NCBI GenBank assembly: GCA_964566575.1
Contig: CAZMKD010000237.1
Span: 1-61,314 of the forward strand
Direction: 5' to 3'
Source of the DNA: an uncultured Verrucomicrobiota bacterium
GTDB lineage: Bacteria > Verrucomicrobiota > Verrucomicrobiia > Palsa-1439
DNA length: 61,314 nt
How positions within the stretch are numbered: the stretch's first letter is position 1; the number at the start of each line of letters is the position of its first letter. This document shows positions 3,075 to 47,575 of the stretch, in pieces. Both the position numbers and the translations under genes were made by a program. The notes below the pieces were generated by a model that did no database searches, had not been told where the DNA came from, and saw only the letters and a program-made list of their open reading frames with translations.

Positions 3075-3634
3075 AACTTCGCCATCAACCGTTCCACCGC
3101 CTCGTTCGCTTCCCGCATCGTGCGCCCCAACGCCACGAACCCGTGATGGCGCATGATGACAACGGCGTGACCGCTCAACACATCCAACACTTCATCCGCC
3201 ATCGCCGGTGTGCCGTACGGACGTTCGCGACGGGTCACCGGCAAGTCGAGTCTGCCAGCGGCTTCAAGCAACGCGTTGCTGTGACCGTGAAACACCGCGC
3301 CGATTCCAGGCCGCGCCTTGTAAATCGCCGCATGCATCAAACTTTCGCTCGATGGCTGATGCCGGCCCGCCACCGTCAACGTTGGCGGCGCGAACGCGGT
3401 CGTGACCACCTCGACCGAATCCGCCGCGTTCAACTTCCTCGGATCGCTGCCGGTCGGCGTGATGATGAAGCCGGTCTCGCTGCGAAAACTCAGGTTGCCC
3501 ATCGCCGTGCCGATCCAACCGGCCGCCGCCCAACGCCGGCACCACTCGAGAAACTCTGCGGTGCCGGGGTGCGCCGTCGGCTCACCGCGCACGAACTCGG
3601 TCCGGAACTTTGTGCCGATGTAGACCTCAGCCAC
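3071..3634 (-). CDS. class II aldolase/adducin family protein (FucA/Ald2-like)
   Basis: GNLSFR, ITPTG, PSSE..MH..IY.ARP, HGHS, HHG motifs. Confidence 0.85.
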   Translation of the reverse strand: MAEVYIGTKFRTEFVRGEPTAHPGTAEFLEWCRRWAAAGWIGTAMGNLSFRSETGFIITPTGSDPRKLNAADSVEVVTTAFAPPTLTVAGRHQPSSESLMHAAIYKARPGIGAVFHGHSNALLEAAGRLDLPVTRRERPYGTPAMADEVLDVLSGHAVVIMRHHGFVALGRTMREANEAVERLMAKL

Positions 3635-4613
3635 GCCCGAAGACCTTTCTCAATTCGCCCGGCTTCACAATCCCCCGCTCGGTGATGATGCCGGTAATGT
3701 ATTTGGCCGGCGTCACATCAAAGGCGGGGTTGCCGGCCTGCGCGCCGCGGGGCGTGACGCGTGTGTTGCCGACGAAATGCACTTCGTCTTCGTCGCGTTC
3801 CTCGATCGGAACATCGTCGCCGCTCCGGCACTGCAAGTCGATCGTCGAACTCGGCGCAGCCACGTAAAACGGAATGCCGTTTTCTTTCGCGACCACAGCT
3901 TTCTGATACGTGCCGATCTTGTTGGCAACATCGCCGTTTGCCGCGATCCGGTCGGCGCCCACGATACACAAATCCACTTCGCCGCGCCGCATATAGAAAC
4001 CGCCGGCATTGTCAGCGATGACCTTGTGCGGCACGCCTTCCTGCATAAACTCCCAACTTGTCAGATTCGCGCCCTGATTGCGCGGCCGCGTTTCATCCAC
4101 CCACACGAATACCTTCCGCTTCTTGCGATGTGCGAGGTAAATCGGCGCGGTCGCGCTGCCCCAATCCACGATGGCAAGCCAACCGGCATTGCAATGCGTC
4201 AGCGCTCGGCAACCATTCTTGATCAGCGGCAACCCGGCCTCACTGATCTTGCGCATCCGTTCGACGTACTCATCCGCAATGTGTTCGGCTTCGGCGACCG
4301 GGTCGTCGAGATGTTGCATCACCCGGTCGAGGGCATGTTTGAGATCGGCGGCTGTCGGGCGCGTGCGGAGCAGCGTCCGGTAGGCTCGCCGAAGATCAAC
4401 GCCCTCAAGACACGCTTGTGCCAACCCATACGCCGCCGTCGCGCCGATTGTGCCGGCGCCGCGAATCATCATGCTCTGGATGGCGTGTGCGGTCTGACGG
4501 TGGTTCGTCAATCGCCGCAACGCAAACTTGTGCGGCAGCAACGGTTGGTTGATCACGATCACATCGCGGCCTTCCATCCAAACCGCCCGGTAATTCTTGC
4601 CACGCACCTTCAC
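3627..4613 (-). CDS. mtnA: S-methyl-5-thioribose-1-phosphate isomerase
   Basis: IRGAGTIG, THCNAGWLA, DETRP..QG..LT, GADRIAANGDVANKIGTY. Confidence 0.95.
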   Translation of the reverse strand: MKVRGKNYRAVWMEGRDVIVINQPLLPHKFALRRLTNHRQTAHAIQSMMIRGAGTIGATAAYGLAQACLEGVDLRRAYRTLLRTRPTAADLKHALDRVMQHLDDPVAEAEHIADEYVERMRKISEAGLPLIKNGCRALTHCNAGWLAIVDWGSATAPIYLAHRKKRKVFVWVDETRPRNQGANLTSWEFMQEGVPHKVIADNAGGFYMRRGEVDLCIVGADRIAANGDVANKIGTYQKAVVAKENGIPFYVAAPSSTIDLQCRSGDDVPIEERDEDEVHFVGNTRVTPRGAQAGNPAFDVTPAKYITGIITERGIVKPGELRKVFGRG

Positions 4614-4820: not shown

Positions 4821-4944
4821 CGGACCGATATGCCGGCTCACAATCGCGGTTAACCGTCGTCCCTTGGCAGCTTTCCAACCAAACTCCAGTTTTGACTTTC
4901 GCTCCCGAGTAAGGCCGAATACTAATGATAGGCGACGAGAGACT

Positions 4945-5370
4945 ATGCCAGACCTAGGATTACAACCGGGAGAGAGAGTTGTTGAGTTGGCTGCGGTCGT
5001 GCGGACGGCAGCGATTGTGAGTGGTGCTGTTGCTGGAGTTGCTACCACGTGGCTGGTCAGACGGAGTTGGTGGTTTTCTCTAGCAGCTTTCGTCTTGGGC
5101 GCAGTCGCCGGTTTTGTCGTTAGTCAGTTCGTTTCGCGGCTGTACCGTTCAGCCGACGGCCAGACAGTAGTTGCAAGAGTCGGGAGCACTTCATTGCCCG
5201 CTACTATTCCGGCAGGCTTAGCTGGTGGTGTATCGGTCGCCTTGGTGGTCGGCATAGCCGTGATTCTGCTTTTGTCAGCGCAGAGCCGTGCGGTGCCGGT
5301 ACTCGGCACTTCGCTCGGCTGCGGGATTGTGCTCGGCATTATCTTCGCGTGCTTGGCATCGCTTGTATGA
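4945..5370 (+). CDS. membrane protein, integron cassette A
   Basis: Hydrophobic 141-aa ORF between GATAGGC (4927) and an attC site. Confidence 0.75.
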   Translation: MPDLGLQPGERVVELAAVVRTAAIVSGAVAGVATTWLVRRSWWFSLAAFVLGAVAGFVVSQFVSRLYRSADGQTVVARVGSTSLPATIPAGLAGGVSVALVVGIAVILLLSAQSRAVPVLGTSLGCGIVLGIIFACLASLV

Positions 5371-5377
5371 GTGCAGA

Positions 5378-5482
5378 GCCTATCCATGCAGTCGAGCGAA
5401 CCGTGAGCCAGCCGACCGGCCGGGTTGCCGGCGGCGGCGTCAGGGGCGGCTGGCTCGCGTTCGCTCACTTTTATCGTTAGGA
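5378..5482 (+). mobile_element. attC site (cassette A)
   Basis: R'' GCCTATC, L'' TCGAGCGAAC, paired arms GAGCCAGCCG/CGGCTGGCTC, L' TTCGCTCA, R' GTTAGGA; extrahelical bases. Confidence 0.85.
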
Positions 5483-5489
5483 AGCATCT

Positions 5490-5861
5490 ATGAACACACG
5501 CGAACTTTGGTCACGCATTCTGATCACTGTTGGCGGGATCGCCATGCTGGTCGGAGCTCTTGATCCGCTGGAAGGATCGCTAGTTATTCTTCCCGGCAGC
5601 GCCGTCGTGACGCTCGGCACATTCCTAAGCAACGGTAGACGCGGGTTGCTCATTTACTGGATATGGATTTTCATCCTGATAGCAGCCGGGGTGGGCGCGA
5701 TGTTTGCGTTGAGCGCGTTCGGAGGTATTGGCGGACGTAGCGGGCATTCAGTGTGGTGGGGGCTGCTGATCGTGCCTTATCCCGTTGGTTGGATTATGGG
5801 AATCGTCAGTCTCGTGTCTAGGCTGATCGGAACCGTTCGAAACCGCCATGCCGCTTCCTAA
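5490..5861 (+). CDS. membrane protein, integron cassette B
   Basis: 123-aa multi-TM ORF whose TAA stop lies inside the attC R'' box. Confidence 0.8.
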   Translation: MNTRELWSRILITVGGIAMLVGALDPLEGSLVILPGSAVVTLGTFLSNGRRGLLIYWIWIFILIAAGVGAMFALSAFGGIGGRSGHSVWWGLLIVPYPVGWIMGIVSLVSRLIGTVRNRHAAS

Positions 5862-5915: not shown

Positions 5916-6032
5916 GAATGCGGCCGGTGCAGCACGGCGCCTCGAAAAAGTTTTGGGAATAACCGCAGTCGGGATCTTTCGTCAATAACCGGCCGGTAAT
6001 TGGATTTCCATGAACGCCGCGTAGCGCTCGGA

Positions 6033-32739: not shown

Positions 32740-32743
<4 letters not shown>

Positions 32744-34188
32744 CGTAGTCCAAATACTCCTGCCGCCATGGTGGCTGCCTCGACCAACGGCTGTTGATAA
32801 ATCCCCAGCCCAATCATTGCAAGCATACACACATACAAGCCGGCACGCATCGGCAGACTGACCGGGATCGGCGACGCGTCTTTGGCTTCCTCAATGTAGA
32901 TCGCGCGGCCGACGTTAAAATAGTAATACAGCGACACGACCACCGCCCCTGCGCCGATGCCGGCTAGCACATAATAATGCCAATTGGTCCGCGCGGCTTC
33001 GATCACGGCGGCGAAGAGTTGGAACTTCCCGAAGAATCCGCTCAGCGGAGGAATGCCGGCCAGCGACGCCATCGCGAGGAACAATGCCACGCCCAGAATC
33101 GGCGACCGTTTCCCCAGCCCGGCAAAGCTCGCAATCTCCTCGCTCTTCGTCGCCCCGGTCACGGCGATGATCGCAAGAAACGCGCACAAGTTCGTGAACG
33201 CATACTGCACGAGGTAAAACATTACGGCTTGCACGCCGAGTTGATTCACCGCCGCCACGCCCATCAGCATGTACCCGGCATGACCGATCGAGGAATACCC
33301 GAGCAGGCGCTTGATGTTGTGCTGCGAAATCGCGCCGAGATTGCCGTACAGCAATGTCGCCGCCGACAGCACAAGGATTACCGGCATCCACACGCCACGC
33401 ACCGGCAGCAATCCGGTCATCATCACGCGCAATAACAACGCAAACCCCGCCGCCTTGCTCCCGACCGCGAGGAAGGCGGTGACCGGCGTTGGCGCGCCCT
33501 GGTAAACGTCCGGCGCCCACAGCTGGAATGGCACGCTCGCGATCTTGAAGCCGAGCCCGGTCAATACCAACAGCATCCCCAAGACAAATGGTGGCGCCGG
33601 CGTCCCGGCCTGCGTCCGCAGGATTTCTGCAAGCGTGTCAAAGTTGGTCGTGCCGGTGGTTCCGAAGATGTAGGCAATGCCGTAGACGGTGAAGCCACTG
33701 GAGAGCGCGCCAAGAATCAGATACTTCGTGCCGGCTTCCAGCGATTGGCTCTGCCGGCGCAGGAAACTCGTCAGTACGTAGAAGGTGATCGTCACGAGTT
33801 CGAGCGCCACGAACAGCAAGATGAAGTCGTTCACCGACGCGATGATCAGCATCCCGGTCGCACAGAGCAACACCAGCGCGTAGAACTCAGCGACGCCGGT
33901 CTCAAACCGTTCCGCGAATTCTGCGCCCATCAACAACACAAACGCCGTCGCCAGTAAGAACAGCCGTTTGAAGAACAACGCAAACGCATCGAGCCGGTAC
34001 ATCCCGTGAAACAGCGGCTCCGGCAGCGTCGGCATGAGAAAGCTCGCCGCCAACGCCATCGCCACCAGCCCGGCCAGCACGTAGCCGAGCTTGCGTTTGT
34101 CGCCCGACGGTCGAAACGCATCCGTCAACAGCGTCCCGATGGCGAGCAACGCCAGCAAACATTCAAGCTGTGTGGCGTAGAGGCTCAC
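32740..34188 (-). CDS. nuoN: NADH-quinone oxidoreductase subunit N
   Basis: EAGTKY, FKIASVPFQLWAPDVYQGAPTP, KRLLGYSSI. Confidence 0.95.
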
Positions 34189-35774
34189 CGATGCACCTCT
34201 AGCGCAGCTTTGTCATTCCGAGCAGGGCGAGGAATCTCTGTCGGGCCGGGAGGGTTGAGATTCCTCACTTCGTTCGGAATGACAGGTGAATAAGTAACGA
34301 TTCGTTGCACACTCGGCTTGATGATGTCCGTCAGCAATCGCGGCCAGAAACCGACCGTCAGCAGCACCGCGATCAGAAACGCATACGGGAACTTCTGCTT
34401 CAGAGTCGTCGCGTCCTTGAGCATGTTCCACTTCTCATCGAACGGACCAAAGAAACTCGTCCGCACCGCCCGCAACAAATACGTCGCCGTGACCACGATG
34501 CCCCAGATTGCACAGATCGTCGCGATGCGGAACAGCGTCGAGCCTTGTTTCCACGCGCCGATGAAGACCATGACTTCGCTGACAAAATTCGCGAACCCCG
34601 GTAACCCGCTCGACGCCATCACGGCCATCACCATGCATACGCCGATGAACGGAATCTTCCGTGCCAGCCCGCTCAGGTCCGGCACGTTGCGGTTGTGCGT
34701 CTGATGATAGAAGAAGCCGATCAACGAGAACGTCAGCGCCGCCATCACGCCGTGCGCGAACATCAACAGCACCGCGCCGGTCACGCCGATCACATTCAAC
34801 GTCGCGATCCCCAGCAGCACGTACCCCATGTGACTGACCGAGCTATAGCCGATGACAAACTTCCAATCCTTCTGCGTCAGCGCCGCCCAACCGGCGTAGA
34901 GAATATTGAAGCACGCCAGAATCGCCAGCAAGTCCACCCACTGCCGCGCCCCCTCCGGCAACAGCGGCAAGGCCAACCGGATGATGCCGTACGCGCCAAG
35001 TTTCTTCAGCACGCCGGCATGCATCATCGAGGCGGCCGTCGGCGCAGACGCGTAGCCGAGCGGCGACCACGTGTGAAACGGAAACAGCGACGCGAGGAAA
35101 CCAAACCCAAACAACAACGCCGCAAACACCCACTTCTGATTCAGACCGGACCCGCGGAGATTCTCCTTCAACTGCACCATGTCCATCGTCCGTCCGCCCG
35201 CGTAGTACATCGTCAGCAACCCGACCAACGCCAGCACTGCGCCCGCCGTCAGGTACAGCGTCAACTTCATCGTCGCATATTCCTTCGTCCGCCCGTGCTT
35301 ACCGGCGGGCAGCGACCCGTACATGCCGATGAGCAAATACATCGGGATCACCGCCATCTCGTAAAAGAAGTAAAAGAAAAACATATCCATCGCGCAAAAC
35401 GTCCCGCTGATGCCGGTCGTCAACGCGAGAAACAAAATGTAGTACTCCTTCTCCCGCTCATGGATTTCGTGCGAAACCAGCGCCCCGCAGAACGACACGA
35501 TCCCGACGAGCAACAGCAACGTCATCGAAATCCCGTCCACGCCTAACTTCAGATTGATCCCGAGCGACTTCACCCACTCGTGCGTGAACACAAACTGATA
35601 CCCAGCATCCTGCCTGTCAAACCGTGAGAAGATATACAGCGTCAACACCAACGACACACCCGTTGCGAAAAGCGCCAACGCCCGAATCGCTCCCGGCTTC
35701 TTTGCCGGCAGCAGAAATGCCAAGAACGCCGACGCCAGCGGCAGCAGGACGGCTATGGTCAGTAAGTTTCCCAT
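34185..35774 (-). CDS. nuoM: NADH-quinone oxidoreductase subunit M
   Basis: GVDGIS, FYEMAVIPMY, PFHTWSP, HAGVLKK, GLPGFANFVSE. Confidence 0.95.
   Translation of the reverse strand: MGNLLTIAVLLPLASAFLAFLLPAKKPGAIRALALFATGVSLVLTLYIFSRFDRQDAGYQFVFTHEWVKSLGINLKLGVDGISMTLLLLVGIVSFCGALVSHEIHEREKEYYILFLALTTGISGTFCAMDMFFFYFFYEMAVIPMYLLIGMYGSLPAGKHGRTKEYATMKLTLYLTAGAVLALVGLLTMYYAGGRTMDMVQLKENLRGSGLNQKWVFAALLFGFGFLASLFPFHTWSPLGYASAPTAASMMHAGVLKKLGAYGIIRLALPLLPEGARQWVDLLAILACFNILYAGWAALTQKDWKFVIGYSSVSHMGYVLLGIATLNVIGVTGAVLLMFAHGVMAALTFSLIGFFYHQTHNRNVPDLSGLARKIPFIGVCMVMAVMASSGLPGFANFVSEVMVFIGAWKQGSTLFRIATICAIWGIVVTATYLLRAVRTSFFGPFDEKWNMLKDATTLKQKFPYAFLIAVLLTVGFWPRLLTDIIKPSVQRIVTYSPVIPNEVRNLNPPGPTEIPRPARNDKAALEVHR
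34211..34284. repeat. palindromic element copy 1, inside nuoM 3' end
   Basis: TGTCATTCCGAGC..CGAGGAATCTC / GAGATTCCTC..TTCGGAATGACA. Confidence 0.85.
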
Positions 35775-35827
35775 TTGTCTAGTTTGTCATTCTGAGTGCA
35801 GCGAAGAATCTCTGTTGGTCGTGTCTA

Positions 35828-36463
35828 TCATGCAGCTGTCTTTCTCCAAATCGCTAGACAGCTATAATCTGTGTGGGTTATTCGCCCGCGCAGTCCGATG
35901 TCCAACTGGCGAACCTGACCGTTGAAGTTAAGCACCGCAGACAACCGGATGCCAACGGCGACCACTTGGTCAGTCGCCGGGTCGTGCACAAATGCGACAT
36001 TGCTCTGTTCGTCATAGCCAAGTAGCAGCCACATGTGGCAACAAGCCGGACTTAGAGCGCCCGATTGCCAGTCGAGCATCCAAGTTGACACAACTACCGG
36101 GTGCTCTTGCACTGCGTGTTTCTTGATGAAGTCGAGCGCCTGCTCGGCCTTTGCGACGTCAAACGGGTTTTGGTCGCCCTGCTCAGTGAACACTTCGGTC
36201 GCAAAAACCGATGAAAACGTGGAGTGATTTTCGAGAGCTTGCACAATTCCGAAACCCACATCTTTCAGTTGCTCGTTCACATTGCTTTCGATTTGCTTGT
36301 TGTTGAGCGCATACCAAGCATCACGGATCTTCTCTTGTGAGAATTCCTCCGTGCCGAGCAAACGAGTGGCATTCGAGATAGACGCAGGGATACACCAGAA
36401 ATGCCCAGCTTGCCGGGTATTCTTACCAAGAATGCCTTGGAATTTTCTCAGCAGTTCACTCAT
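35828..36463 (-). CDS. C39-like papain-fold cysteine peptidase
   Basis: Q.....WC, HMWLLLGYD, HDP motifs; alternative start 36511. Confidence 0.7.
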   Translation of the reverse strand: MSELLRKFQGILGKNTRQAGHFWCIPASISNATRLLGTEEFSQEKIRDAWYALNNKQIESNVNEQLKDVGFGIVQALENHSTFSSVFATEVFTEQGDQNPFDVAKAEQALDFIKKHAVQEHPVVVSTWMLDWQSGALSPACCHMWLLLGYDEQSNVAFVHDPATDQVVAVGIRLSAVLNFNGQVRQLDIGLRGRITHTDYSCLAIWRKTAA

Positions 36464-36550
36464 GAATTCTCGTTCTTCAGGCGATTGATCGATAATCAAC
36501 GCGCTGCGCAACTGTAGTCGGCGATAGACGACCCAGCAGGATTGCCGCGT

Positions 36551-37663
36551 TCACCTAGAAGACCTCCTTACAAGTTTTCCGGTTATCGGATCGCCCCCGA
36601 AATTGATGCCTTTATACTCAGTAAGGTTCTCATTGAAGCGCAGATGAGCTCTAGTTGGATTTTCGAGTTGTGCTCGTCCAAGACTTCCCATCCTTATGAT
36701 CGCCTCTCGCTCTCCCACGGATTCGACAAACGCTTCCCATCCGTGACGTGGGCATTGTACGCGCAGGGTGTCGTCGATAGTGATCGTCTCGACAGTGTCT
36801 CCAGGTGACCCCCCTGTCCAAGTCCAAGTTGAGTTCCTAAGGATCGTCGCTAGACGGGGACCGGTGCTGCTCCCGGAGCGACCTGACTGTTCCGGTCTCG
36901 GCGTCTTAGTTTCTGTAACATCGTCGGCAGTTTCCGATTCTGAAAGCCCTTTCTGCAAACGCTCAATCCTTCCTACCAAGTCTGTGACTTCCACAGGAAC
37001 AACTAGGGGTGAGGTTCCAACCTTGATTGTGAGTTGTGTTCCATCCACTTTCATTAACCGGTACGTCTCGCCTCTCGACAAGCCCTGTACCCCGACCCTC
37101 TGCCCTTCGACGATTATCGGAAACGAAACGCTCTGAGTCATGGTCACAAACTTCGGCATTTGCTCCGCACTCAGTTCCATGCCGCGTGCGGGGTTGACAA
37201 CCTCGTACTTCTTCTGGATTTTCTGAATCTCTTTCTGGGCGTTGACGGCGTCGTCGAGCTTGTTATCGATGGTCAGCTTTCGCTTCATATCCTCAAGCTG
37301 AGTGAGGTAGCTTCTTGCGATTTCCTCTGCCGATTTCTTAGGCGCTGCCAGAAACTTGTTCTGAAGGTCTCGAAGCTTAACGGGTATATCAACTACGTGT
37401 TTCAGGTCTAAAGACTTCTCCGAGGCAAATCGCTCGATTTCCTTCTTCACGGCAAGAGTCTTGTCTAGGTCGCCCTGTAGACGGAACTCATCAGCAAGTT
37501 TGTCCAAGGCTGCCCCGTAGTCTTGAAGCAGTTGCGCCTTGGTTTTCAGCACTTCGGCGTCACACTTCTCAGCAGCCCCCTGGTAGGACTCCAATGCACT
37601 TGCCGGCCTCACACCCAGTAGTATTACGAATGCCATCACGAGACTCACCGCAATAGTTTTCAT
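36551..37663 (-). CDS. secreted coiled-coil hypothetical protein
   Basis: GGAGG RBS, signal peptide, long coiled coil, beta-rich C-terminus. Confidence 0.8.
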   Translation of the reverse strand: MKTIAVSLVMAFVILLGVRPASALESYQGAAEKCDAEVLKTKAQLLQDYGAALDKLADEFRLQGDLDKTLAVKKEIERFASEKSLDLKHVVDIPVKLRDLQNKFLAAPKKSAEEIARSYLTQLEDMKRKLTIDNKLDDAVNAQKEIQKIQKKYEVVNPARGMELSAEQMPKFVTMTQSVSFPIIVEGQRVGVQGLSRGETYRLMKVDGTQLTIKVGTSPLVVPVEVTDLVGRIERLQKGLSESETADDVTETKTPRPEQSGRSGSSTGPRLATILRNSTWTWTGGSPGDTVETITIDDTLRVQCPRHGWEAFVESVGEREAIIRMGSLGRAQLENPTRAHLRFNENLTEYKGINFGGDPITGKLVRRSSR

Positions 37664-37793
37664 ACAAGGTCCTCCGATATGTGTTGTACTCGATTGAATT
37701 CGTCGCTGAAAATATCGAGTCTAATCCCAGCAAGCCACCCGAACGACGGAGATTCTTCGCTGCGCTCAGAATGACAGATGGGGAGAGCGAGCT

Positions 37794-39680
37794 TCATTTC
37801 ACCACCACATAATAAATGATCACCGTCACGCCCAAGCCGAACAGAAAGGCGTAGCTCTGGATGTTACCGGTCTGCAATAGCCGCAGCGTCTTACCGGCCA
37901 CGCTCGTCGCGCCGGCAAGTCCGCCGATACCGAGACGTTGCAGCACCCAGCGGTCGAACAATTCGCACAGCGTCGCGATTGTGCCTTGCACATACTTGAT
38001 GATCAGTGCGTACAACTCGTCGAAATAGTATTTGTTCTCGACCCATGTCCACGCGCGACCCAACGCAGCCTTGACCGGCGCGTCGCTCGGATTCGCCATC
38101 AGGTAAATCTTTGCCGACAACAGGAAGCCCGCGGCCGGTATGAGCAGCAGTGCGAATCCCTTCCACGCATCATGGTGCTCCGCGTGCGCATTCGGCTTGA
38201 GGAAGTGCGGGACGTAATCGCCCCATCCACCGACAATCGACAGCACAGCGAGGAACACCAGCGGCAACGTCATCACGAGCGGCGATTCGTGCGGTTCATC
38301 TTCTTTGTGTGCTAGTGGCACAGGCGTCCCTGCCTGTGAATGTTCATGATGATGCACAGCGGCCTGTGCCACCCCATGTCCCCAGCGCGGCTTGCCGAAG
38401 AACACCACGAAGCATTCCCGGCCCATGTAGTATGCCGTCAGAAACGCCGTGAACGCGCCCATCACAAACAGCGCCTTGTTGTGCTCCAGCGCAAGCAACA
38501 GGATTTGGTCCTTCGAGTAAAACCCGCTCAACGGATACACGCCGGCCAGCGCCAGTGTGCCGATCATGAACGTCGCGAAGGTGATCGGCGTCTTCTTCCA
38601 CAGACCGCCCATCTTCCAGATATCCTGTTCGTGGTGCAGCGCATGAATCACGCTGCCGGCACCAAGGAACAACAGCGCCTTGAAGAACGCGTGCGTTGTC
38701 AGATGGAACATTGCCGGCGTGATGCCGGTCAACCCGACCGCCATCACCATGTAACCGAGTTGCGAAAGCGTCGAGTACGCGAGGATGCGTTTGATGTCGT
38801 TCTGCGCGATGGCAATCGTCGCCGCGCCCAACGCCGTGATTCCGCCAATCCACGCGATCAACGTCAACGCTGTCTCGCTCGGCAAAATCACGAACGACAC
38901 CCGGCACAGCATGTAAACGCCCGCCACCACCATTGTCGCCGCATGAATGAGCGCCGAGACCGGCGTCGGCCCTTCCATCGCGTCCGGCAGCCAGACATGC
39001 AACGGAAATTGCGCGCTCTTACCGACCGCGCCGCAAAAGATCAGCGCGGCAATGAGCGACAGCGTACCGGCAGGGATACCGGCAATCTTGCCCGGCAGCT
39101 CGGCAAAGTTGAACGTGCCGGTATTCGTCCACAGCAGGAGCACGCCGAGCATCATGCCGAAGTCACCGATGCGGTTGACGAGGAACGCTTTCTTGCCGGC
39201 TTCGGCGGCGCTGTGTCTCTCGAACCAGAAACCGATGAGCAAGTAGCTGCTGACGCCGACAAGTTCCCAGAAGATGAAGATCTGGATGAAGTTGTTCGAG
39301 AGCACGATGCCGAGCATCGAGAACGTGAACAACGACAGGCACGCGAAGAACCGCGAGAATCCCGGGTCGCCCTTCATGTAGCCGACGGAATAAATGTGAA
39401 TCGCCGAGCCAACGCCGGTTACCACGAGCAGCATGAGGATGCTAAGCCGGTCAATCGTCGCGCCAAACTCAATCTTCACGGCGTCGATCACGAGCCATTG
39501 CAGCGGGGCCGGTGACTGCCAGTTGCCGTGTTGCAGGAACAATTGCATCGTGAGCGCGAAGCCAGTCAGAATCGCCGCGCACGAAATGAGTGCGCTGAGC
39601 ATCTGCGCCTTGTGCGTCAGCAGCATGATCACCGCCGCGGCGCACAGTGGAGAAAAGAGGATAATCCAGACGGGGTTCAT
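37794..39680 (-). CDS. nuoL: NADH-quinone oxidoreductase subunit L
   Basis: GKSAQFPLHVWLPDAMEGPTPVSALIHAATMV, THAFFKALLFL. Confidence 0.97.
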   Translation of the reverse strand: MNPVWIILFSPLCAAAVIMLLTHKAQMLSALISCAAILTGFALTMQLFLQHGNWQSPAPLQWLVIDAVKIEFGATIDRLSILMLLVVTGVGSAIHIYSVGYMKGDPGFSRFFACLSLFTFSMLGIVLSNNFIQIFIFWELVGVSSYLLIGFWFERHSAAEAGKKAFLVNRIGDFGMMLGVLLLWTNTGTFNFAELPGKIAGIPAGTLSLIAALIFCGAVGKSAQFPLHVWLPDAMEGPTPVSALIHAATMVVAGVYMLCRVSFVILPSETALTLIAWIGGITALGAATIAIAQNDIKRILAYSTLSQLGYMVMAVGLTGITPAMFHLTTHAFFKALLFLGAGSVIHALHHEQDIWKMGGLWKKTPITFATFMIGTLALAGVYPLSGFYSKDQILLLALEHNKALFVMGAFTAFLTAYYMGRECFVVFFGKPRWGHGVAQAAVHHHEHSQAGTPVPLAHKEDEPHESPLVMTLPLVFLAVLSIVGGWGDYVPHFLKPNAHAEHHDAWKGFALLLIPAAGFLLSAKIYLMANPSDAPVKAALGRAWTWVENKYYFDELYALIIKYVQGTIATLCELFDRWVLQRLGIGGLAGATSVAGKTLRLLQTGNIQSYAFLFGLGVTVIIYYVVVK

Positions 39681-39693
39681 AGTCTCAAACGCT

Positions 39694-39778
39694 TGTCACC
39701 CTGAGCGCAGCGAAGGGTCTCTGTCGTTTCCGCGCCGCACCCCAACGACTGAGATTCTTCGCTCCGCTCAGAATGACA
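39694..39778. repeat. palindromic element copy 3
   Basis: TGTCACCCTGAGCGCAGCGAAGGGTCTC ... GAGATTCTTCGCTCCGCTCAGAATGACA. Confidence 0.88.
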
Positions 39779-39780
39779 GC

Positions 39781-39909
39781 CTAGGAGTTTGTCGGACTTG
39801 GAAGAGAGATTTTTCATAAGTTGTTCATTATCAAGAGTCGCATTTTTCGTGGGCAAGAATAGTCAGGTTGATAATCAACGGCTTACATCAAAGTCCGACA
39901 GGCTGCTAG
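39781..39909. mobile_element. 129-bp MITE-like element
   Basis: CTAG at both ends, 16/19 terminal inverted repeat (..TGTCGGACTT), 15/18 subterminal inverted repeat, AT-rich. Confidence 0.7.
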
Positions 39910-39954
39910 TGGAAGTTTCGAGTTCGTTCGTGTCTGATTCGTGTTCATTTGTGG

Positions 39955-40266
39955 CTACAGCCGCATCGAGTTCAGTTCACTCACGCTCACGGTTTGTTTG
40001 CGGCGGAACAGCGCCACGATGATCGCCAAGCCGACTGCCACTTCCGCCGCGGCGATGGCGATGATGAAAAACACGAACACCTGGCCATCCACGATTTTGT
40101 TGTATTTCGAGAACGCGATCAGCGCGAGGTTGGCGGCGTTGAGGTTCATCTCCAGCGCCATGAAAATCACCAGCGCGTTGCGCCGCACAATCACGCCGGC
40201 AATGCCCAGCGCGAACAACAGGCCGCTCACCCAGAGGTAATGGTTGAGTGTCAGCTCGGACGTCAT
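39955..40266 (-). CDS. nuoK: NADH-quinone oxidoreductase subunit K
   Basis: RRN...[25 protein letters not shown]. Confidence 0.95.
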
Positions 40267-40763
40267 TTCAAATCCTTCTTCGACAGCAGCACCACGCCGA
40301 CCATCGCGACGAGCAGTAACAGCGCGGTGACTTCAAACGGCAGCATGTAATGTTGAAACAGCGGCTTCACGACGTTCTCCAGGCCCGCGCTCAAGTCGGC
40401 GGTGCCGGTCTGCAGCGAAGTGACCGGCTTACTGAGGATGATACCGAGTTCCCACACAAACGCCCCGGCCACCACGAGTCCGCCGAGGATGCCGAGGTAC
40501 GCAAACCGCCGCCGCTCCGATGCCTTGATGTCGAGCAGCATAATGACGAACAGGAACAGCACCATCACCGCCCCGGCATAGACGAGCACCTGAATCGCCG
40601 CGATGAAGAACGCCTCCAGCAGCACGAACAGCCCGGCCATGAACAGAAACATCAGCACAAGACACATCGCGCTGGCGACCGGATTGCGGTTGGCAATCAC
40701 CAGCACGCCGCAGAACAGCATCGCGAGGCTGAAGAACCAAAATAGTGTGTCGTGAAAGTTCAT
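40263..40763 (-). CDS. nuoJ: NADH-quinone oxidoreductase subunit J
   Basis: [26 protein letters not shown]. Confidence 0.95.
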
Positions 40764-40767
40764 TCGC

Positions 40768-41340
40768 TTAGTGCTTTGACGTCGCCTCGACCGGCTTGCC
40801 ATCTCTTACCGGTGCCGCGGGCTCGCCCGGCGGCGGCGCGCCCATGTACTTCCATTTCCAAATCGAGTCCGGCTGGACGCCGCCGAGTTCCAGCAGCTTC
40901 TGTTTGTTGAACTTCAACTCATCGCGGCTGTAGCCGGCAATGGCGAAATCGTTTTTGAGGAAGATCGCCTCCTCTGGGCAGACTTCCTCGCAGTAGCCGC
41001 AGTAAATGCACCGCAGCATGTCGATGACGAATTCCTGCGGTTCTTTCTCGACGTTGGCGTCGAACGCGTTCTCCGGTCGGAATCCCGGCGTAATGCGAAT
41101 CGCTTTCGGCGGGCACACAAACTCACAGAGTTGGCACGACACGCATTTCACGCGGCCCTCCGGATCTTTCACCAACGTCGGCGCGCCCCGGTAAGCGCCG
41201 TACAGCGGCGGCTTTTCTTCGGGATACTGCCGGGTGAACTTCCGCTTCGGGATATGCTTCAACGTCAGCCACAGCCCGCCGATAATCTGCGGGATGTACG
41301 TTTTCTCCAACCACGTTAGTTTGGGTCGCTGGACTTGCAT
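40768..41340 (-). CDS. nuoI: NADH-quinone oxidoreductase subunit I
   Basis: CVSCQLCEFVCP and CIYCGYCEEVCP. Confidence 0.96.
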   Translation of the reverse strand: MQVQRPKLTWLEKTYIPQIIGGLWLTLKHIPKRKFTRQYPEEKPPLYGAYRGAPTLVKDPEGRVKCVSCQLCEFVCPPKAIRITPGFRPENAFDANVEKEPQEFVIDMLRCIYCGYCEEVCPEEAIFLKNDFAIAGYSRDELKFNKQKLLELGGVQPDSIWKWKYMGAPPPGEPAAPVRDGKPVEATSKH

Positions 41341-44004: not shown

Positions 44005-44841
44005 CTAACTCTTCAAAGCGGCCAGCAATTGAATCGGAGTGAAAGAAAAATCTTTCTTCATCTGCTTCCCCGTCCACTTTTTCACGAGTGGCGTTTTCGA
44101 AAGTGCATTCAACACAACGTGCAAGGCGAAGTTGGCGTCATCAGCGGCGCGTAGCTCACCTGCTGTCAGGATAAATGATGGCGTGTTCCCGGAGACTCCC
44201 TTCACCTCAACTTTTCGCGTCTGTTCGCCCTTCACGCAAAGGAGATCAAAACCAATTCTCTGTTTCTCGACAGACTCTACCTCCCACCCCAATTTCCGGA
44301 AGTCACCAGTAACCTTTCGAACTGCTGCTTCTTCTACCTTTCGATTCTTGGCTGGGTCACCAAATCCACCGCCGCCTTGCTTCTTCTTGTCGGCAACAGA
44401 TTTGGATTTCGCATGGCTGCCTTTCCAAGGCAGGAGTTTCTTCAACTCTGACTCTACATGCTTCAAGCTGACGACAGCCGCACGAGGGGCTACCCATTTC
44501 CGGACAAGTTGTGCGCTAATGGGGCGACCATTGAGTAGTTGTTCGCACTTATTGAGATCAAACTTGAGATCCACGAACCATTCTTCGCCGTCCTGCAACA
44601 CATCGTTGACCTTGGCATATCCGATGATCCCGAGGTCTTGGTCTCCCGTGTACACATAGACCTCGTCGCCCTTCCGGACGTTGTGGAAGTTCGTCTTGAT
44701 ATACCATGCGTCGTCTTCAGCTAAGCGGCGGTTCTCCACGAGAATCCTGTACGTATCAACGGATACCGGCCAGTGACGACCGTCCTTAAGTTCAAAGTAT
44801 CGGCCAGCCCGCTCTGAGATTGGATAGAGCCACGACGACAT
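44005..44841 (-). CDS. EVE/PUA-like domain fused to DUF3883 PD-(D/E)xK nuclease
   Basis: NVRKGDEVYVY..GIIGYAKV..FVDLKF..RPIS; C-terminal VEEAAV..GWEV..GFDL..VEVKG; GGAGG RBS. Confidence 0.75.
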   Translation of the reverse strand: MSSWLYPISERAGRYFELKDGRHWPVSVDTYRILVENRRLAEDDAWYIKTNFHNVRKGDEVYVYTGDQDLGIIGYAKVNDVLQDGEEWFVDLKFDLNKCEQLLNGRPISAQLVRKWVAPRAAVVSLKHVESELKKLLPWKGSHAKSKSVADKKKQGGGGFGDPAKNRKVEEAAVRKVTGDFRKLGWEVESVEKQRIGFDLLCVKGEQTRKVEVKGVSGNTPSFILTAGELRAADDANFALHVVLNALSKTPLVKKWTGKQMKKDFSFTPIQLLAALKS

Positions 44842-44867
44842 TACTTCAGTCCTCCGTTCTCGTGCGT

Positions 44868-45150
44868 TGTCACCCTGAGCGTAGCGAAAGGTCTCTGTCG
44901 TTTCTTCGGAAGCGACCGAACAATGTTGTAGCCACTCACGTAACTGCCGTTCGCGGTGTGAGTCCAGGACCACTGAACGTCTTCATTAGAAGCGAGCGCG
45001 ACGCCTTGCACGGCAAGCGCGCCCGACAACGATGATTGCGGGGCCGTCACCCAGCGAATACCGGCAGTCGTCTTCGATCGCCGCGAACGACTGAGATTTG
45101 CCGCTTTACGACGAGCGGCCTCTGCGAGTTTCACTTCGTTCAGAATGACA
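44868..45150. repeat. palindromic element copy 4 with about 200 bp interior and split right arm
   Basis: Left arm 44868-44895; right arm GAGATTT (45093) and TCACTTCGTTCAGAATGACA (45131-45150). Confidence 0.75.
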
Positions 45151-45160
45151 TCCAACGTGA

Positions 45161-45718
45161 TCATCGCTGTGCTTTCCTTCGGGCTATCTGGTACTTTGCG
45201 CCACGCTCCCGAACTTGGAAGCCGATCTGTTTGCGCGGCGGTTCTGGCTCGGTCATGAGTTGCCGGATCGCCTCGAAGACGACGCGGAACTGCTTGTCGT
45301 ATTTCTTCTCCAGTTCTTCGAGCTTGCGAGCAAGATCAGCGCGTGTCGCCAGCAGTTGCCGGAGCTTGACGAAGGCGCGCATGATCTCGATGTTCACTTT
45401 CACCGCGCGCGGGCTGTGCAGAACGCTGGAAAGCATCGCGACGCCTTGTTCCGTGAAAGCGTAGGGAGTGAACCGTCGCCCACCCCAACTTGAAATCACA
45501 ATTCGTGATTTCAAGTTTGTAAGCTCTTGGCGTGTAAGCTGAAACATGAAATCATCCGGGAAGCGCTCGGCGTTGCGTTTCACAGCTTGGTTCAAGACAC
45601 CCACTGGCACGCCATAGAGTTCTGCCAGGTCGGCGCTCAACATCACCTTCTGTCCGCGAATCAAGTAGATGCTGTTCTGAATCCGCTCAGCTGGAACAAT
45701 GGAGGAGTTAGTGGCCAT
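45161..45718 (-). CDS. ORF6N-domain protein
   Basis: [16 protein letters not shown]....[34 protein letters not shown]. Confidence 0.93.
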
Positions 45719-47474
45719 TCTTCCCCCCGTTCTTGCACGCTTCTTCAAACTCGCTGCGGTAATTTTTCAGGAACGCCTTGACCGGCCACGCCGCGGCTTC
45801 GCCAAGCGGGCAGATCGTTTTGCCGTCGATGTTGTCGGCAACTTCGAACAATAGATCGACGTCTTCGGGGCGACCGTGGCCTTCTTTGATGCGGTGGAGC
45901 ATTTTCTCCATCCAGAGCGTGCCCTCCCGGCAGGGCGTGCATTGGCCGCAACTTTCGTGGGCGTAAAATTGGGAGACGTTCAGCGTGGCGTCGACGATAC
46001 TCACGTCTTCGGTAAGCACGATGATGCCGCCGCTGCCGGCCATCGTGCCGGCTTTGCGCAGCGATTCGAAGTCGAGCGGGACATCCAGATTATTGGCGGG
46101 CAAAACTGGCATCGAACTGCCGCCGGGGATGACGCCTTTGATCTTTTTGCCGTCGGTCAAGCCGCCGCAGACATCTTCGATGAGTTGGCGCATCGTAAGT
46201 TTGCCCATCTCGAATTCGTAATACCCGGGGTGTTTGACCGGGCCGCTGACGCAGACGAGGCGCGTGCCGGTCGAGCCGGGGACGCCCATAGCCTTGAACC
46301 ATGCCGCGCCGTTCTTCACGATGTGCGGGATATTGGCGAGCGTCTCGACGTTGTTGACGACGGTCGGGCAGCCGAACAAGCCGACCACTGCCGGGAACGG
46401 CGGCTTGATGCGCGGGTAAGCACGTTTGCCTTCGAGCGATTCGATGAGGCCAGTCTCTTCACCGCAGATATATGCGCCAGCACCGCGATGGACGTAAATC
46501 TCAACACCCTTGCCGACGTAGCCTTGGGCGCGGGCTTCTTCAATGGCTTTCAGGAGAATCTGCGCGCCGACCGGCATCTCGCCCCGAATGTAGATGTAAG
46601 CGACCTTCGCCCCGACGGCGTAACAGGAGATGAGAATGCCTTCGAGGAGTTGGTGCGGGTCGTAATTGATGAGCTGCCGGTCCTTGAACGTTCCCGGCTC
46701 AGATTCGTCGGCGTTGCAGACGAGATAGACGGGCTTGCCGGTGCCCTTGGCGAGGAAACCCCATTTGAGGCCGCACGGGAAACCGGCGCCGCCACGACCG
46801 CGAATCTCGCTGCTCTTGACTTCATTGACGATTTCCTCGGGCTTCATCGTCAACGCCTTCGCCAACGCTTGATAGCCACCTTCCTTCTCGTAATCGGCGA
46901 GCGAACCGGTGTAGCCGGGCTTGGTGATGTTCGAGAGCACGATGCGTTTTTCGAGTGGATGGGCCGGCAACGGTTTCGCGATCGGTTCTTTCGCGAGTGT
47001 GCCGGTCCGGCGGATGTCAGCAATGATCTGATTGAGCCGCTCGGGCGTGACGCTGTCGAAGTGCTCGTCGTTGATCATCATGGCCGGCCCGGTGCCGCAC
47101 GAGGCGAGGCATTCGACTGTCGAAATCGTGAAGAGACCGTCGGGCGTGTTTTCATCGAGGCCGACGCCGAGTTTGTCCTTGAGCCGCTTCAGCAAACCAG
47201 CGCAACCGGCGAGGTCGCACGAGAGTGTCCGGCAAACTTTGACGTGAAACTTGCCGCGCGGCGTCTGGGTAAACATCGGGTAGAACGTGACGACTTCCCA
47301 GACATTGATCGGTTGCAGGCTGAGTTTCTGCGCCGTCCATTCGACCTGCTCGCTGCCGAGATACCCGAAGTGCTCTTGTAAGAGGTGGAGTAGCCACAGT
47401 ACCGATGCCCGTTTGGTCGGGTAGTGCGTGATGATCTCGTCGATGTGACGTTCTAATTGTTCTGGTACGGTCAT
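45708..47474 (-). CDS. nuoEF: fused NADH-quinone oxidoreductase subunits E and F
   Basis: NuoE CRTLSC..CLASC followed in frame by Nuo[32 protein letters not shown]. Confidence 0.93.
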
Positions 47475-47487
47475 TTTTCTTTAGTGC

Positions 47488-47564
47488 TGTCACCCTGAGC
47501 GCAGCGAAGGGTCTCAGTCGAACCGGCCGAACGACGGAGATTCTTCGCTTCGCTCAGAATGACA
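47488..47564. repeat. palindromic element copy 5
   Basis: TGTCACCCTGAGCGCAGCGAAGGGTCTC ... GAGATTCTTCGCTTCGCTCAGAATGACA. Confidence 0.88.
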
Positions 47565-47575
47565 AATAAATTTTT

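Follow-up and report, generated by a model that had tools for sequence, protein, structure and literature searches.

We describe here an inverted pair of short repeats that encloses two foreign genes between nuoL and nuoM in the complex I (nuo) operon of an uncultured Verrucomicrobiota bacterium (Verrucomicrobiia, Palsa-1439; assembly GCA_964566575.1, contig CAZMKD010000237.1, positions 1 to 61,314). The whole of this stretch of 61,314 nucleotides (nt), which is probably a metagenome assembly, is referred to below as the window. The two repeats, or arms, are the halves of one resident doublet of repetitive extragenic palindromic (REP) sequences, a REPIN-like hairpin standing at the nuoL-nuoM junction. 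We consider it probable that such a hairpin is resident in a clade of soil and peat Verrucomicrobiia, that its loop was filled in the window by a foreign two-gene insert, and that the window represents one allele of a hypervariable junction.

The nuo genes of the window run on the minus strand, with nuoJ (40263-40802, preceded by further nuo genes upstream), nuoK (39955-40266), nuoL (37794-39680, 628 amino acids), nuoM (34185-35774, 529 amino acids) and nuoN (32740-34188) in this order. The two genes that flank the insert, nuoL upstream and nuoM downstream, are 2019 nt apart. The arm that is upstream in the nuo sense (L arm, 37737-37776, minus strand) begins 17 nt past the nuoL stop codon and consists of a 28-nt core (37749-37776) with an inner stem extension; the downstream arm (R arm, 35785-35824, minus strand), with its own 28-nt core at 35785-35812 and inner extension, stops 10 nt short of the nuoM ATG. 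The junction of the R arm with nuoM, GAATGACAAACTAGACAAATGG, shows no difference between the window and locus L025 of a relative (L numbers designate the loci compared in this study). The two cores differ at a single position and match at 27/28, a closer match than in the short copies of the repeat, most of which show 4-5 mismatches; a first-pass annotation of this sequence had drawn attention to this. The ungapped inverted repeat extends over the full 40 nt of both arms with 88% complementarity, its two copies lying 1912 nt apart, so that terminal inverted repeats do bracket the insert. The inner stem extensions of the window (CGTCGTTCGGGT / ACACGACCAACA) are more diverged than those of clean cargo alleles in relatives. 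On the sense strand, the arms are computed to form a duplex of -53.5 kcal/mol, and processing of the transcript at this stem is possible.

The insert that fills the hairpin loop (35825-37736, minus strand, 1912 nt) is compact and is made up of a 73-nt leader, cargo gene 2, a spacer, cargo gene 1 and 3 nt, in this order. Cargo gene 2 (36551-37663, minus strand) codes for a 370-residue protein with a Sec-type signal peptide, then a helical module at residues about 25-160 and two further domains. Cargo gene 1 (35828-36511, minus strand) codes for a Peptidase_C39_2-like cysteine peptidase of 227 residues when read from a TTG at 36511 or of 211 residues when read from an ATG at 36463, the spacer measuring 39 nt in the first case and 87 nt in the second. 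The cargo is foreign in composition, with a G+C content (GC) of 0.52 and a third-codon-position GC (GC3) of 0.57-0.58, against 0.58-0.60 and 0.78-0.80 in nuoL, nuoM and nuoN. The first-pass annotation had described two enclosed genes of lower GC, co-oriented with nuo, with neither a transposase nor a target duplication, and each of these observations holds: both open reading frames (ORFs) are intact and lower in GC and GC3, a Pfam scan of the two ORFs found no transposase domain, and inspection of the arm flanks (CCCCATC/TGTCA ... TGACA/AACTAG, nuo sense) found no direct repeat or target duplication. No promoter-like or terminator-like site was found at the cargo borders. Transcription of the cargo probably comes by read-through from the nuo promoter, and its co-orientation together with the lack of flanking terminators would fit a route by which genes are delivered into an essential operon and remain expressed.

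Short hairpins present elsewhere in the window (34210-34285, 39693-39781 and 47487-47567) are of one repeat family with the arms. The 27-nt arm pattern occurs four times in the window at up to 3 mismatches, against 0.00 expected from 100 shuffles of the window, and 9 arms were counted in the window's 61 kb and 113 in related loci totalling 0.54 Mb, the chance expectation being again 0.00. A total of 26 short doublets of 70-90 nt were found, those of the window folding at -37 to -54 kcal/mol. The family therefore has the characters of REPs, namely a multicopy, short, imperfect palindrome that is mostly extragenic and is arranged in inverted doublets forming a long hairpin. Arms start with TGTCATTC... 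and finish with ...GAATCTC, and no GTAG or CGTC tag was found at their ends. Two intact short doublets lie on the minus strand in gaps of the window's nuo operon, one between nuoK and nuoL (39693-39781, a TT/AA arm with a CC/GG arm in the nuo sense) and one between nuoD and nuoF (47487-47567). The pairing of a TT/AA arm with a CC/GG arm is usual in short doublets (these two and 17 more in related loci). Doublets of this kind pair fully on one strand only (G.U or G.T), which points to a strand-specific single-stranded form, either RNA or DNA. The cargo-bearing pairs, that of the window included, are all of the TT/AA type on both sides. At the 3' end of nuoM, a doublet of the CCGA...GAGGAATC variant is translated (34212-34283, ...VIPNEVRNL...) and makes up the last ~36 codons, NuoM of the window being about 36 residues longer than relatives that end near residue 493. 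An Rfam scan of the region 33-48.5 kb gave sub-threshold chance matches only, which places the hairpin outside the described RNA families, and a literature search found no paper containing the arm sequence.

A NuoM scan of species-representative genomes yielded 33 loci, all of them from Verrucomicrobiia metagenome-assembled genomes of peat, bog and soil (NuoM identity 76-91%), and a metagenome scan with a GIY-YIG protein discussed below, together with contig look-ups, added about 30 further loci. The state of the nuoL-nuoM junction was compared across the 33 genome loci and 19 metagenome loci. The gap between these two genes ranges from 0 to 2934 nt, against at most 113 nt for nuoJ-nuoK and at most 666 nt for nuoK-nuoL. 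The empty, short-hairpin and other-cargo states that the first-pass annotation had envisaged at this junction in relatives were all found. The junction is empty in seven loci, where the nuoL stop and the nuoM start overlap as TGATG, and these include the close relatives L044, L042 and L014 (nuoM 86-91% identical). In L028 and L039, a scar hairpin of 66-71 nt (5963-5993 in each) joins a complete L arm, via a shared AGAAT, to the final bases of the R arm (GACA) and looks like the footprint of a deletion between arms; L032 retains nothing but an R-arm remnant. In five other loci (L025, L018, L048, L056 and L121), a short doublet is followed by a gene coding for a 113-residue GIY-YIG protein, the last ~10 codons of which are a further R arm.

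Other loci carry cargo genes unrelated to those of the window, most of them nuclease- or defence-like in type. In the arrangement L-cargo-R-GIY-YIG-R, the cargo codes for an Mrr_cat-like protein of 333 residues (L023, L043), a PLD nuclease (L029, L060, L125), an HhH-GPD-like protein (L041, L055, L059, L065), an HNH protein with homing-endonuclease repeats (L049) or an unknown protein of 176 residues (L054), and L038 keeps between intact arms a remnant of the HhH-GPD-like cargo limited to its first 25 codons. The simpler L-cargo-R arrangement, directly before nuoM, is that of the window and of L037 (PDC-S61/PDDEXK). Two loci are decayed: L019 carries a type II restriction-modification pair flanked by an L arm that is rearranged and an R arm reduced to a short remnant, and L020 carries YhcG together with a GIY-YIG 3' end and a remnant of an R arm. 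All inserted genes are co-oriented with nuo, and the alleles decay by several routes, namely scar formation, reduction of the cargo to a remnant and loss of arms. Taken across relatives, the junction has housed a restriction-modification pair, PDC-S02 (YhcG), PDC-S05 (RhuM/ORF6N), PDC-S61 and a DrmC-like PLD protein, as well as HNH, Mrr-like, ParE and PIN toxin-antitoxin genes. This variable and defence-enriched gene content between conserved core genes is that of a defence hotspot.

The evidence on which part of the structure is resident comes from the comparison of these alleles. Twelve further loci of relatives have the same hairpin at the same junction with a complete 34-bp stem, formed by the 27-nt arm and TGTCGTT / AACGACA, and unrelated genes change the loop only. 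In the clean cargo alleles, TGTCGTT or a one-base variant of it follows the L arm, AACGACA precedes the R arm, and unrelated sequence begins exactly at the expected loop position. The outer flank on the nuoL side, gCTCGCctcTtCatcT, is common to the window, L041, L037, L023 and L055, and that on the nuoM side, GAATGACAAaCTAGaaAAATGG, is identical in the window and L025. Since alleles that differ in cargo share homologous sequence outside both arms, it is the arms that are resident and the cargo that varies. The first-pass annotation had offered two possibilities, capture of genes into the loop of a REP and mobilisation of cargo by the arms as a non-autonomous unit, and it is the former that the 12 loci with full stems and the homologous outer flanks support.

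The latter would make the insert a mobile insertion cassette, or a MITE (miniature inverted-repeat transposable element) with passengers, the arms being its terminal inverted repeats and a transposase acting in trans to bring the whole unit into the junction. Near-perfect arms of 34-40 nt, identical arms around many different cargos, and cargo ORFs packed tightly between arms, some of which end inside the R arm, are in keeping with such an origin, and mobile insertion cassettes are an established kind of element (PMC3913671). We nevertheless hold it very improbable. Had the unit come with arms of its own, both outer joins would not have been recreated, and the homologous outer flanks of alleles with different cargo imply that the arms did not arrive with the cargo; target duplication is absent as well. 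In the roughly 1.1 Mb sampled, the arm-cargo-arm pairs with cargo other than GIY-YIG all lie at nuoL-nuoM and no such unit was found at a second site, homologues of the cargo elsewhere have no arms, cargo divergence tracks that of the flanks, and neither a transposase with these ends nor a cognate insertion sequence (IS) was found. The annotation had itself set against its reading a cargo occurring elsewhere without arms together with a lack of other cargo-bearing pairs: the first is the case for distant relatives of the window's cargo, and the second is not, other cargo-bearing pairs being abundant. It had also considered that the arms might be halves of two independent decayed REPs. That two such remnants surround an ordinary insertion, or that the assembly is a chimera formed through repeats, seems to us scarcely credible: solo arms are indeed common in unrelated contigs and an arm of this length could confuse short-k assembly, but complementarity runs on into the stem extension, neither arm has a partner of its own, which argues against independent REPs, and 12 independent assemblies show the configuration again, their cargo having diverged together with its flanks.

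The history of the alleles could be followed where two loci share a cargo. Between L041 and L055, the cargo is 79.8% identical and nuoL, nuoM and the GIY-YIG gene about 80%; between L023 and L043, identity is 92.7% for the cargo, 90.1% for the GIY-YIG gene, 84.6% for nuoL and 94.2% for nuoM. Since cargo divergence tracks the flanks, the alleles appear to be old and mostly vertically inherited. Recombination has also entered their history and made them mosaic. On the nuoM tree, empty alleles are scattered among filled ones, and in the comparison of L055 with L059 identical blocks alternate with blocks that are 11-15% divergent across nuoL, the cargo and the GIY-YIG gene. Recombination breakpoints at the arms were considered for this pair and rejected, the breakpoint lying about 90 nt inside the GIY-YIG gene. 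In L035, the final ~100 nt of nuoL are present a second time (5440-5540), downstream of the YhcG cargo, as would be expected from homology-facilitated insertion or from a single crossover.

Recombination might also act through the arms themselves, if a pair of crossovers within the 34-bp arms copied L-gene-R units into resident doublets. The arm is widespread and strongly conserved, its exact 27 nt being present in 49 stretches of IMG/VR viral contigs of very varied base composition (L066-L114), the stems are always complete and recombination is active in the region. Such short-homology exchange is improbable in our judgement: no donor arm-gene-arm unit was found outside the junction, arms in unrelated contigs are mostly solo and mostly lack the stem extension, those of viral contigs for the most part standing beside gene ends, and the single mapped breakpoint is not at an arm. 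Three kb-scale L...R pairs in viral contigs were attributed to chance, their inner flanks being non-complementary. One viral contig (L090, 9369-9750) carries tandem arrays of arms with 30-33-nt spacing.

The gene that accompanies the repeats in many relatives codes for a GIY-YIG protein (PF01541) of 113 residues that matches the bacterial Slx1-like protein 1zg2. It is a bare catalytic domain, in which no DNA-binding domain for site recognition was found. Members of the Slx1-like family are regarded in the literature as minimal repair nucleases that are inherited vertically and are akin to a structure-specific endonuclease (PMC1564403). One search returned 1897 close relatives of the protein, and every readable genomic context shows a doublet upstream, the gene, and an R arm overlapping the 3' end of the gene. 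These contexts are nuoL-nuoM (several relatives), nuoG-nuoH (L116, L117, L061 and L062, and probably also L064, where it is not confirmed), argJ-argB (L118 and L057), two other non-nuo sites (L052, and L124 at 4830-5620) and, in mirrored arrangement, viral contig L108. The repeat variant co-varies with the GIY-YIG lineage: proteins at least 77% identical to the L025 copy pair with the repeat CATTCTGAGCGNAGCGAAGAATC, the nuoG-nuoH class (63-69%) pairs with CATTCCGA...GAGGAATC, and the L124 copy, directly between inverted arms, pairs with CATCCTGAACGAAGTGAAGGATC. The first two of these pairs of GIY-YIG gene and repeat are both found on one contig in L116 (5900-6530 and 11600-12145). The repeat-flanked genes other than cargo all code for GIY-YIG proteins, and no Y1 (HUH) transposase was found in that position in a scan for REP-associated tyrosine transposases (RAYTs) that was not exhaustive. 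A scan of viral contigs with the GIY-YIG profile gave one irrelevant match, and the literature search turned up nothing that connects GIY-YIG genes with REP-type repeats.

The presence of this nuclease raises the possibility of intronless homing, in which GIY-YIG would cut empty nuoL-nuoM junctions and repair would copy neighbouring genes along with its own, the window allele being a hitch-hiker whose endonuclease was later lost. A nuclease gene between two highly conserved genes, a presence/absence pattern that does not follow the nuoM tree, the recurrence of the module in other conserved operons and the HNH protein with homing-endonuclease repeats among the loop cargos are all consistent with homing, and the seg and mob genes of phage T4 act in this way (PMC2988022, PMC2790892). 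An endonuclease gene polymorphic between conserved genes is indeed found in relatives; none was found in the window. Moreover, the 113-residue protein is deprived of a DNA-binding domain, homing between bacterial cells requires DNA transfer, and homing alone leaves the position of the cargo in the loop unexplained. Taking both sides together, we think homing unlikely as the origin of the window allele.

We retain the filling of a resident hairpin as our preferred reading, and propose the following sequence of events for it. A module of the form [L R]-GIY-YIG-R would first colonise nuoL-nuoM. DNA would then be captured at the centre of the palindrome, through a break in the single-stranded loop of the extruded hairpin that leaves both stems intact; the adjacent GIY-YIG nuclease, of a structure-specific type, is the candidate cutter, and a foreign fragment would be joined in at the break. 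Insertions in the loop may survive preferentially because they preserve the hairpin. The resulting alleles would pass down vertically, and homologous recombination via the highly conserved nuoL and nuoM would shuffle them between strains. In the lineage of the window, the GIY-YIG gene would have been lost by recombination between two direct R arms, or would never have been present; the L-cargo-R form of the window is the leftover that the former event would be expected to produce from an L-cargo-R-GIY-R allele. A broader proposition, which we put forward tentatively and regard as possible rather than likely, is that Slx1-like GIY-YIG nucleases are the partners of widespread REPIN-like repeats in a second, non-HUH kind of REP system, and that the loops of the doublets adjacent to these nucleases capture nuclease, defence and other accessory genes co-directionally at intergenic junctions of essential operons such as nuo and arg, where these genes would be expressed by read-through and be hard to lose.

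Placement of cargo in the loop is enriched, not exclusive. Eight cargo types lie in the loop, which represents about 15% of the non-coding target, versus four alleles in which the cargo stands beside the hairpin or replaces it and four without arms. Several points must be weighed against the reading that we prefer. Cargo lies outside the hairpin or without arms in L119/L120, L017, L020/L035, L021, L024, L027 and L033. Loop placement is partly a matter of ascertainment or survivorship, because loop cargo is recognisable only if both arms survive and because insertions elsewhere would not preserve whatever role the hairpin has. Given the arm-less cargo alleles, and the arm-less genes at other nuo junctions, nuoL-nuoM is permissive independently of the hairpin. 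The sampling was centred on nuoL-nuoM, so that cargo-bearing doublets may exist elsewhere in these genomes. Because the window has no GIY-YIG gene, a role of this nuclease in its history is drawn from relatives, and every step proposed for the capture is inferred. It is unlikely that the assembly of the window was mis-joined through the 34-40-nt arms. As to the alleles with absent or incomplete hairpins, inspection by eye recognised decayed arms or GIY-YIG remnants in L019, L020 and L017, and no other inverted repeats were found around the arm-less alleles.

The relatives of the two cargo genes were found in settings very different from a REP hairpin. For cargo gene 1, no more than five relatives (42-51% identity) were found in 5.8 billion proteins and, wherever the contig suffices, these are inside BREX loci, directly after a PglX-type gene and before PglZ (L001, 323-937; L007, 1556-2185; L009, 1319-1951; L008, 1030-1701); a conserved neighbour of 208 residues accompanies some of them. 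In the alignment of six sequences, the His of a conserved VHD stretch is invariant and the Cys of the CIPA motif is present in 5/6, being replaced by G in P0006. The AlphaFold2 model computed from this alignment has a mean pLDDT (predicted local distance difference test) of 53.7, too low for a fold search, and no significant profile match was found in the PDB. Cargo gene 2 has one close relative, with similarity limited to the N-terminal ~250 residues, or two thirds of the protein. The N-terminal module of cargo gene 2 is shared by about 400 representative multidomain proteins that are secreted, some of them with Laminin_G_3 or trypsin domains. We rejected the idea that the two genes form a conserved pair: cargo gene 2 has no similarity to the genes that lie upstream of cargo gene 1 homologues in BREX loci, and no C39 gene was found beside the relative of cargo gene 2 on its contigs. 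No arm sequence was found in the loci of the relatives of either gene, so arms do not accompany these relatives. PADLOC gave no match for either cargo protein and the window cargo is no recognised defence system, its sole link to defence being the BREX-embedded relatives of cargo gene 1.

Accessory genes are not limited to nuoL-nuoM. The window has a second cargo island at nuoF-nuoG (44005-45748, minus strand), also foreign, with a GC3 of 0.59-0.65. It comprises, in nuo sense, an ORF6N/PDC-S05 protein gene (45161-45748), a degenerate L arm (about 45126-45150) followed by about 221 nt, an R arm (about 44868-44904) and a gene for a NOV_C/DUF3883-type protein (44005-44841). In L116 (1-12324), a PDDEXK_3 gene, a Phd/PIN pair, two GIY-YIG genes and an ORF6N gene occupy five nuo junctions, and in L119 and L120 YhcG, ParE/MqsA and another antitoxin surround a GIY-YIG gene, the accessory genes of these three nuo operons being all co-oriented with nuo. 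L042 and L044, in which nuoL-nuoM is empty, have an ORF6N gene at nuoK-nuoL (3600-4180 in each). Positions 39782-39954 of the window, after the nuoK stop, resemble by eye the leader of the ORF6N insert of L044, with a REP doublet in place of the gene. Such a distribution indicates that nuo junctions are habitual homes for accessory, toxin-antitoxin and nuclease genes in this clade.

The essential and tightly packed complex I operon thus tolerates and regularly carries foreign genes in these bacteria, with several junctions occupied in a single genome, contrary to the usual picture of accessory genes lying in islands between operons. The occurrence of at least eight unrelated cargos in one hairpin loop suggests a structure-directed route of gene acquisition that needs neither integrase nor transposase. 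The observations extend two known kinds of system, REPIN-type repeats and hotspots between conserved genes, and have two unusual features, protein-coding cargo in a doublet loop within an essential operon and a GIY-YIG partner instead of a tyrosine transposase. If the GIY-YIG family were to drive or maintain REP-like repeats, this would provide a function for a very large family of 'putative endonucleases' and define a second mechanistic class of REP system.

Among known systems, the closest is REPIN-RAYT, in which REP doublets occur with a REP-associated tyrosine transposase (PMC3116915, PMC3337134, PMC2817692). As in that system, a multicopy short palindrome forms inverted intergenic doublets folding into long hairpins, and one repeat-flanked gene of nuclease type has a lineage with which the repeat variant co-varies (PMC3116915). 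In contrast, the flanked gene here is Slx1-like GIY-YIG and not a Y1/HUH transposase, the arms lack a GTAG or CGTC tag (PMC3733652), and unrelated protein-coding cargo in the doublet loop is not a described feature of REPINs.

Some ISs are known to target REP loops, such as IS1397 and ISKpn1 in enterobacteria and ISPpu9/10 in Pseudomonas; they insert precisely inside the REP palindrome and leave the stem halves on either side. The alleles described here likewise have foreign DNA exactly within a REP palindrome, but whereas those ISs have their own transposase, ends and target duplications, the present inserts have none of the three.

Mobile insertion cassettes, with IS-derived inverted repeats (PMC3913671), also place inverted repeats around passengers without a transposase; unlike them, the junction described here has resident repeats, with no target duplication, cognate IS or second site. 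The seg and mob genes of T-even phages (PMC2988022, PMC2790892) are small nuclease genes, some of them GIY-YIG, that stand between conserved essential genes in the same direction as these, are polymorphic from one relative to another and have adjacent DNA co-converted, all of which recalls the present case; the differences are a cellular genome, a minimal Slx1-like nuclease and the association with a hairpin repeat. Homing-endonuclease ORFs in the peripheral loops of group I introns offer another parallel, in that ORFs are tolerated only where the structured element stays unbroken, although that element is here a DNA or RNA repeat hairpin and not a ribozyme. Integrons have a tyrosine-recombinase integrase with attI, and each of their cassettes has a complete attC hairpin behind it; in contrast, no integrase is present at the site of the nuo cargo, which lies inside the hairpin and not beside it. 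Finally, the junction shares with defence-gene hotspots between core genes a variable, defence-enriched content and conserved flanks, and is distinguished from the usual ones by its position inside an operon rather than between operons, with no integrase or mobile-element backbone.

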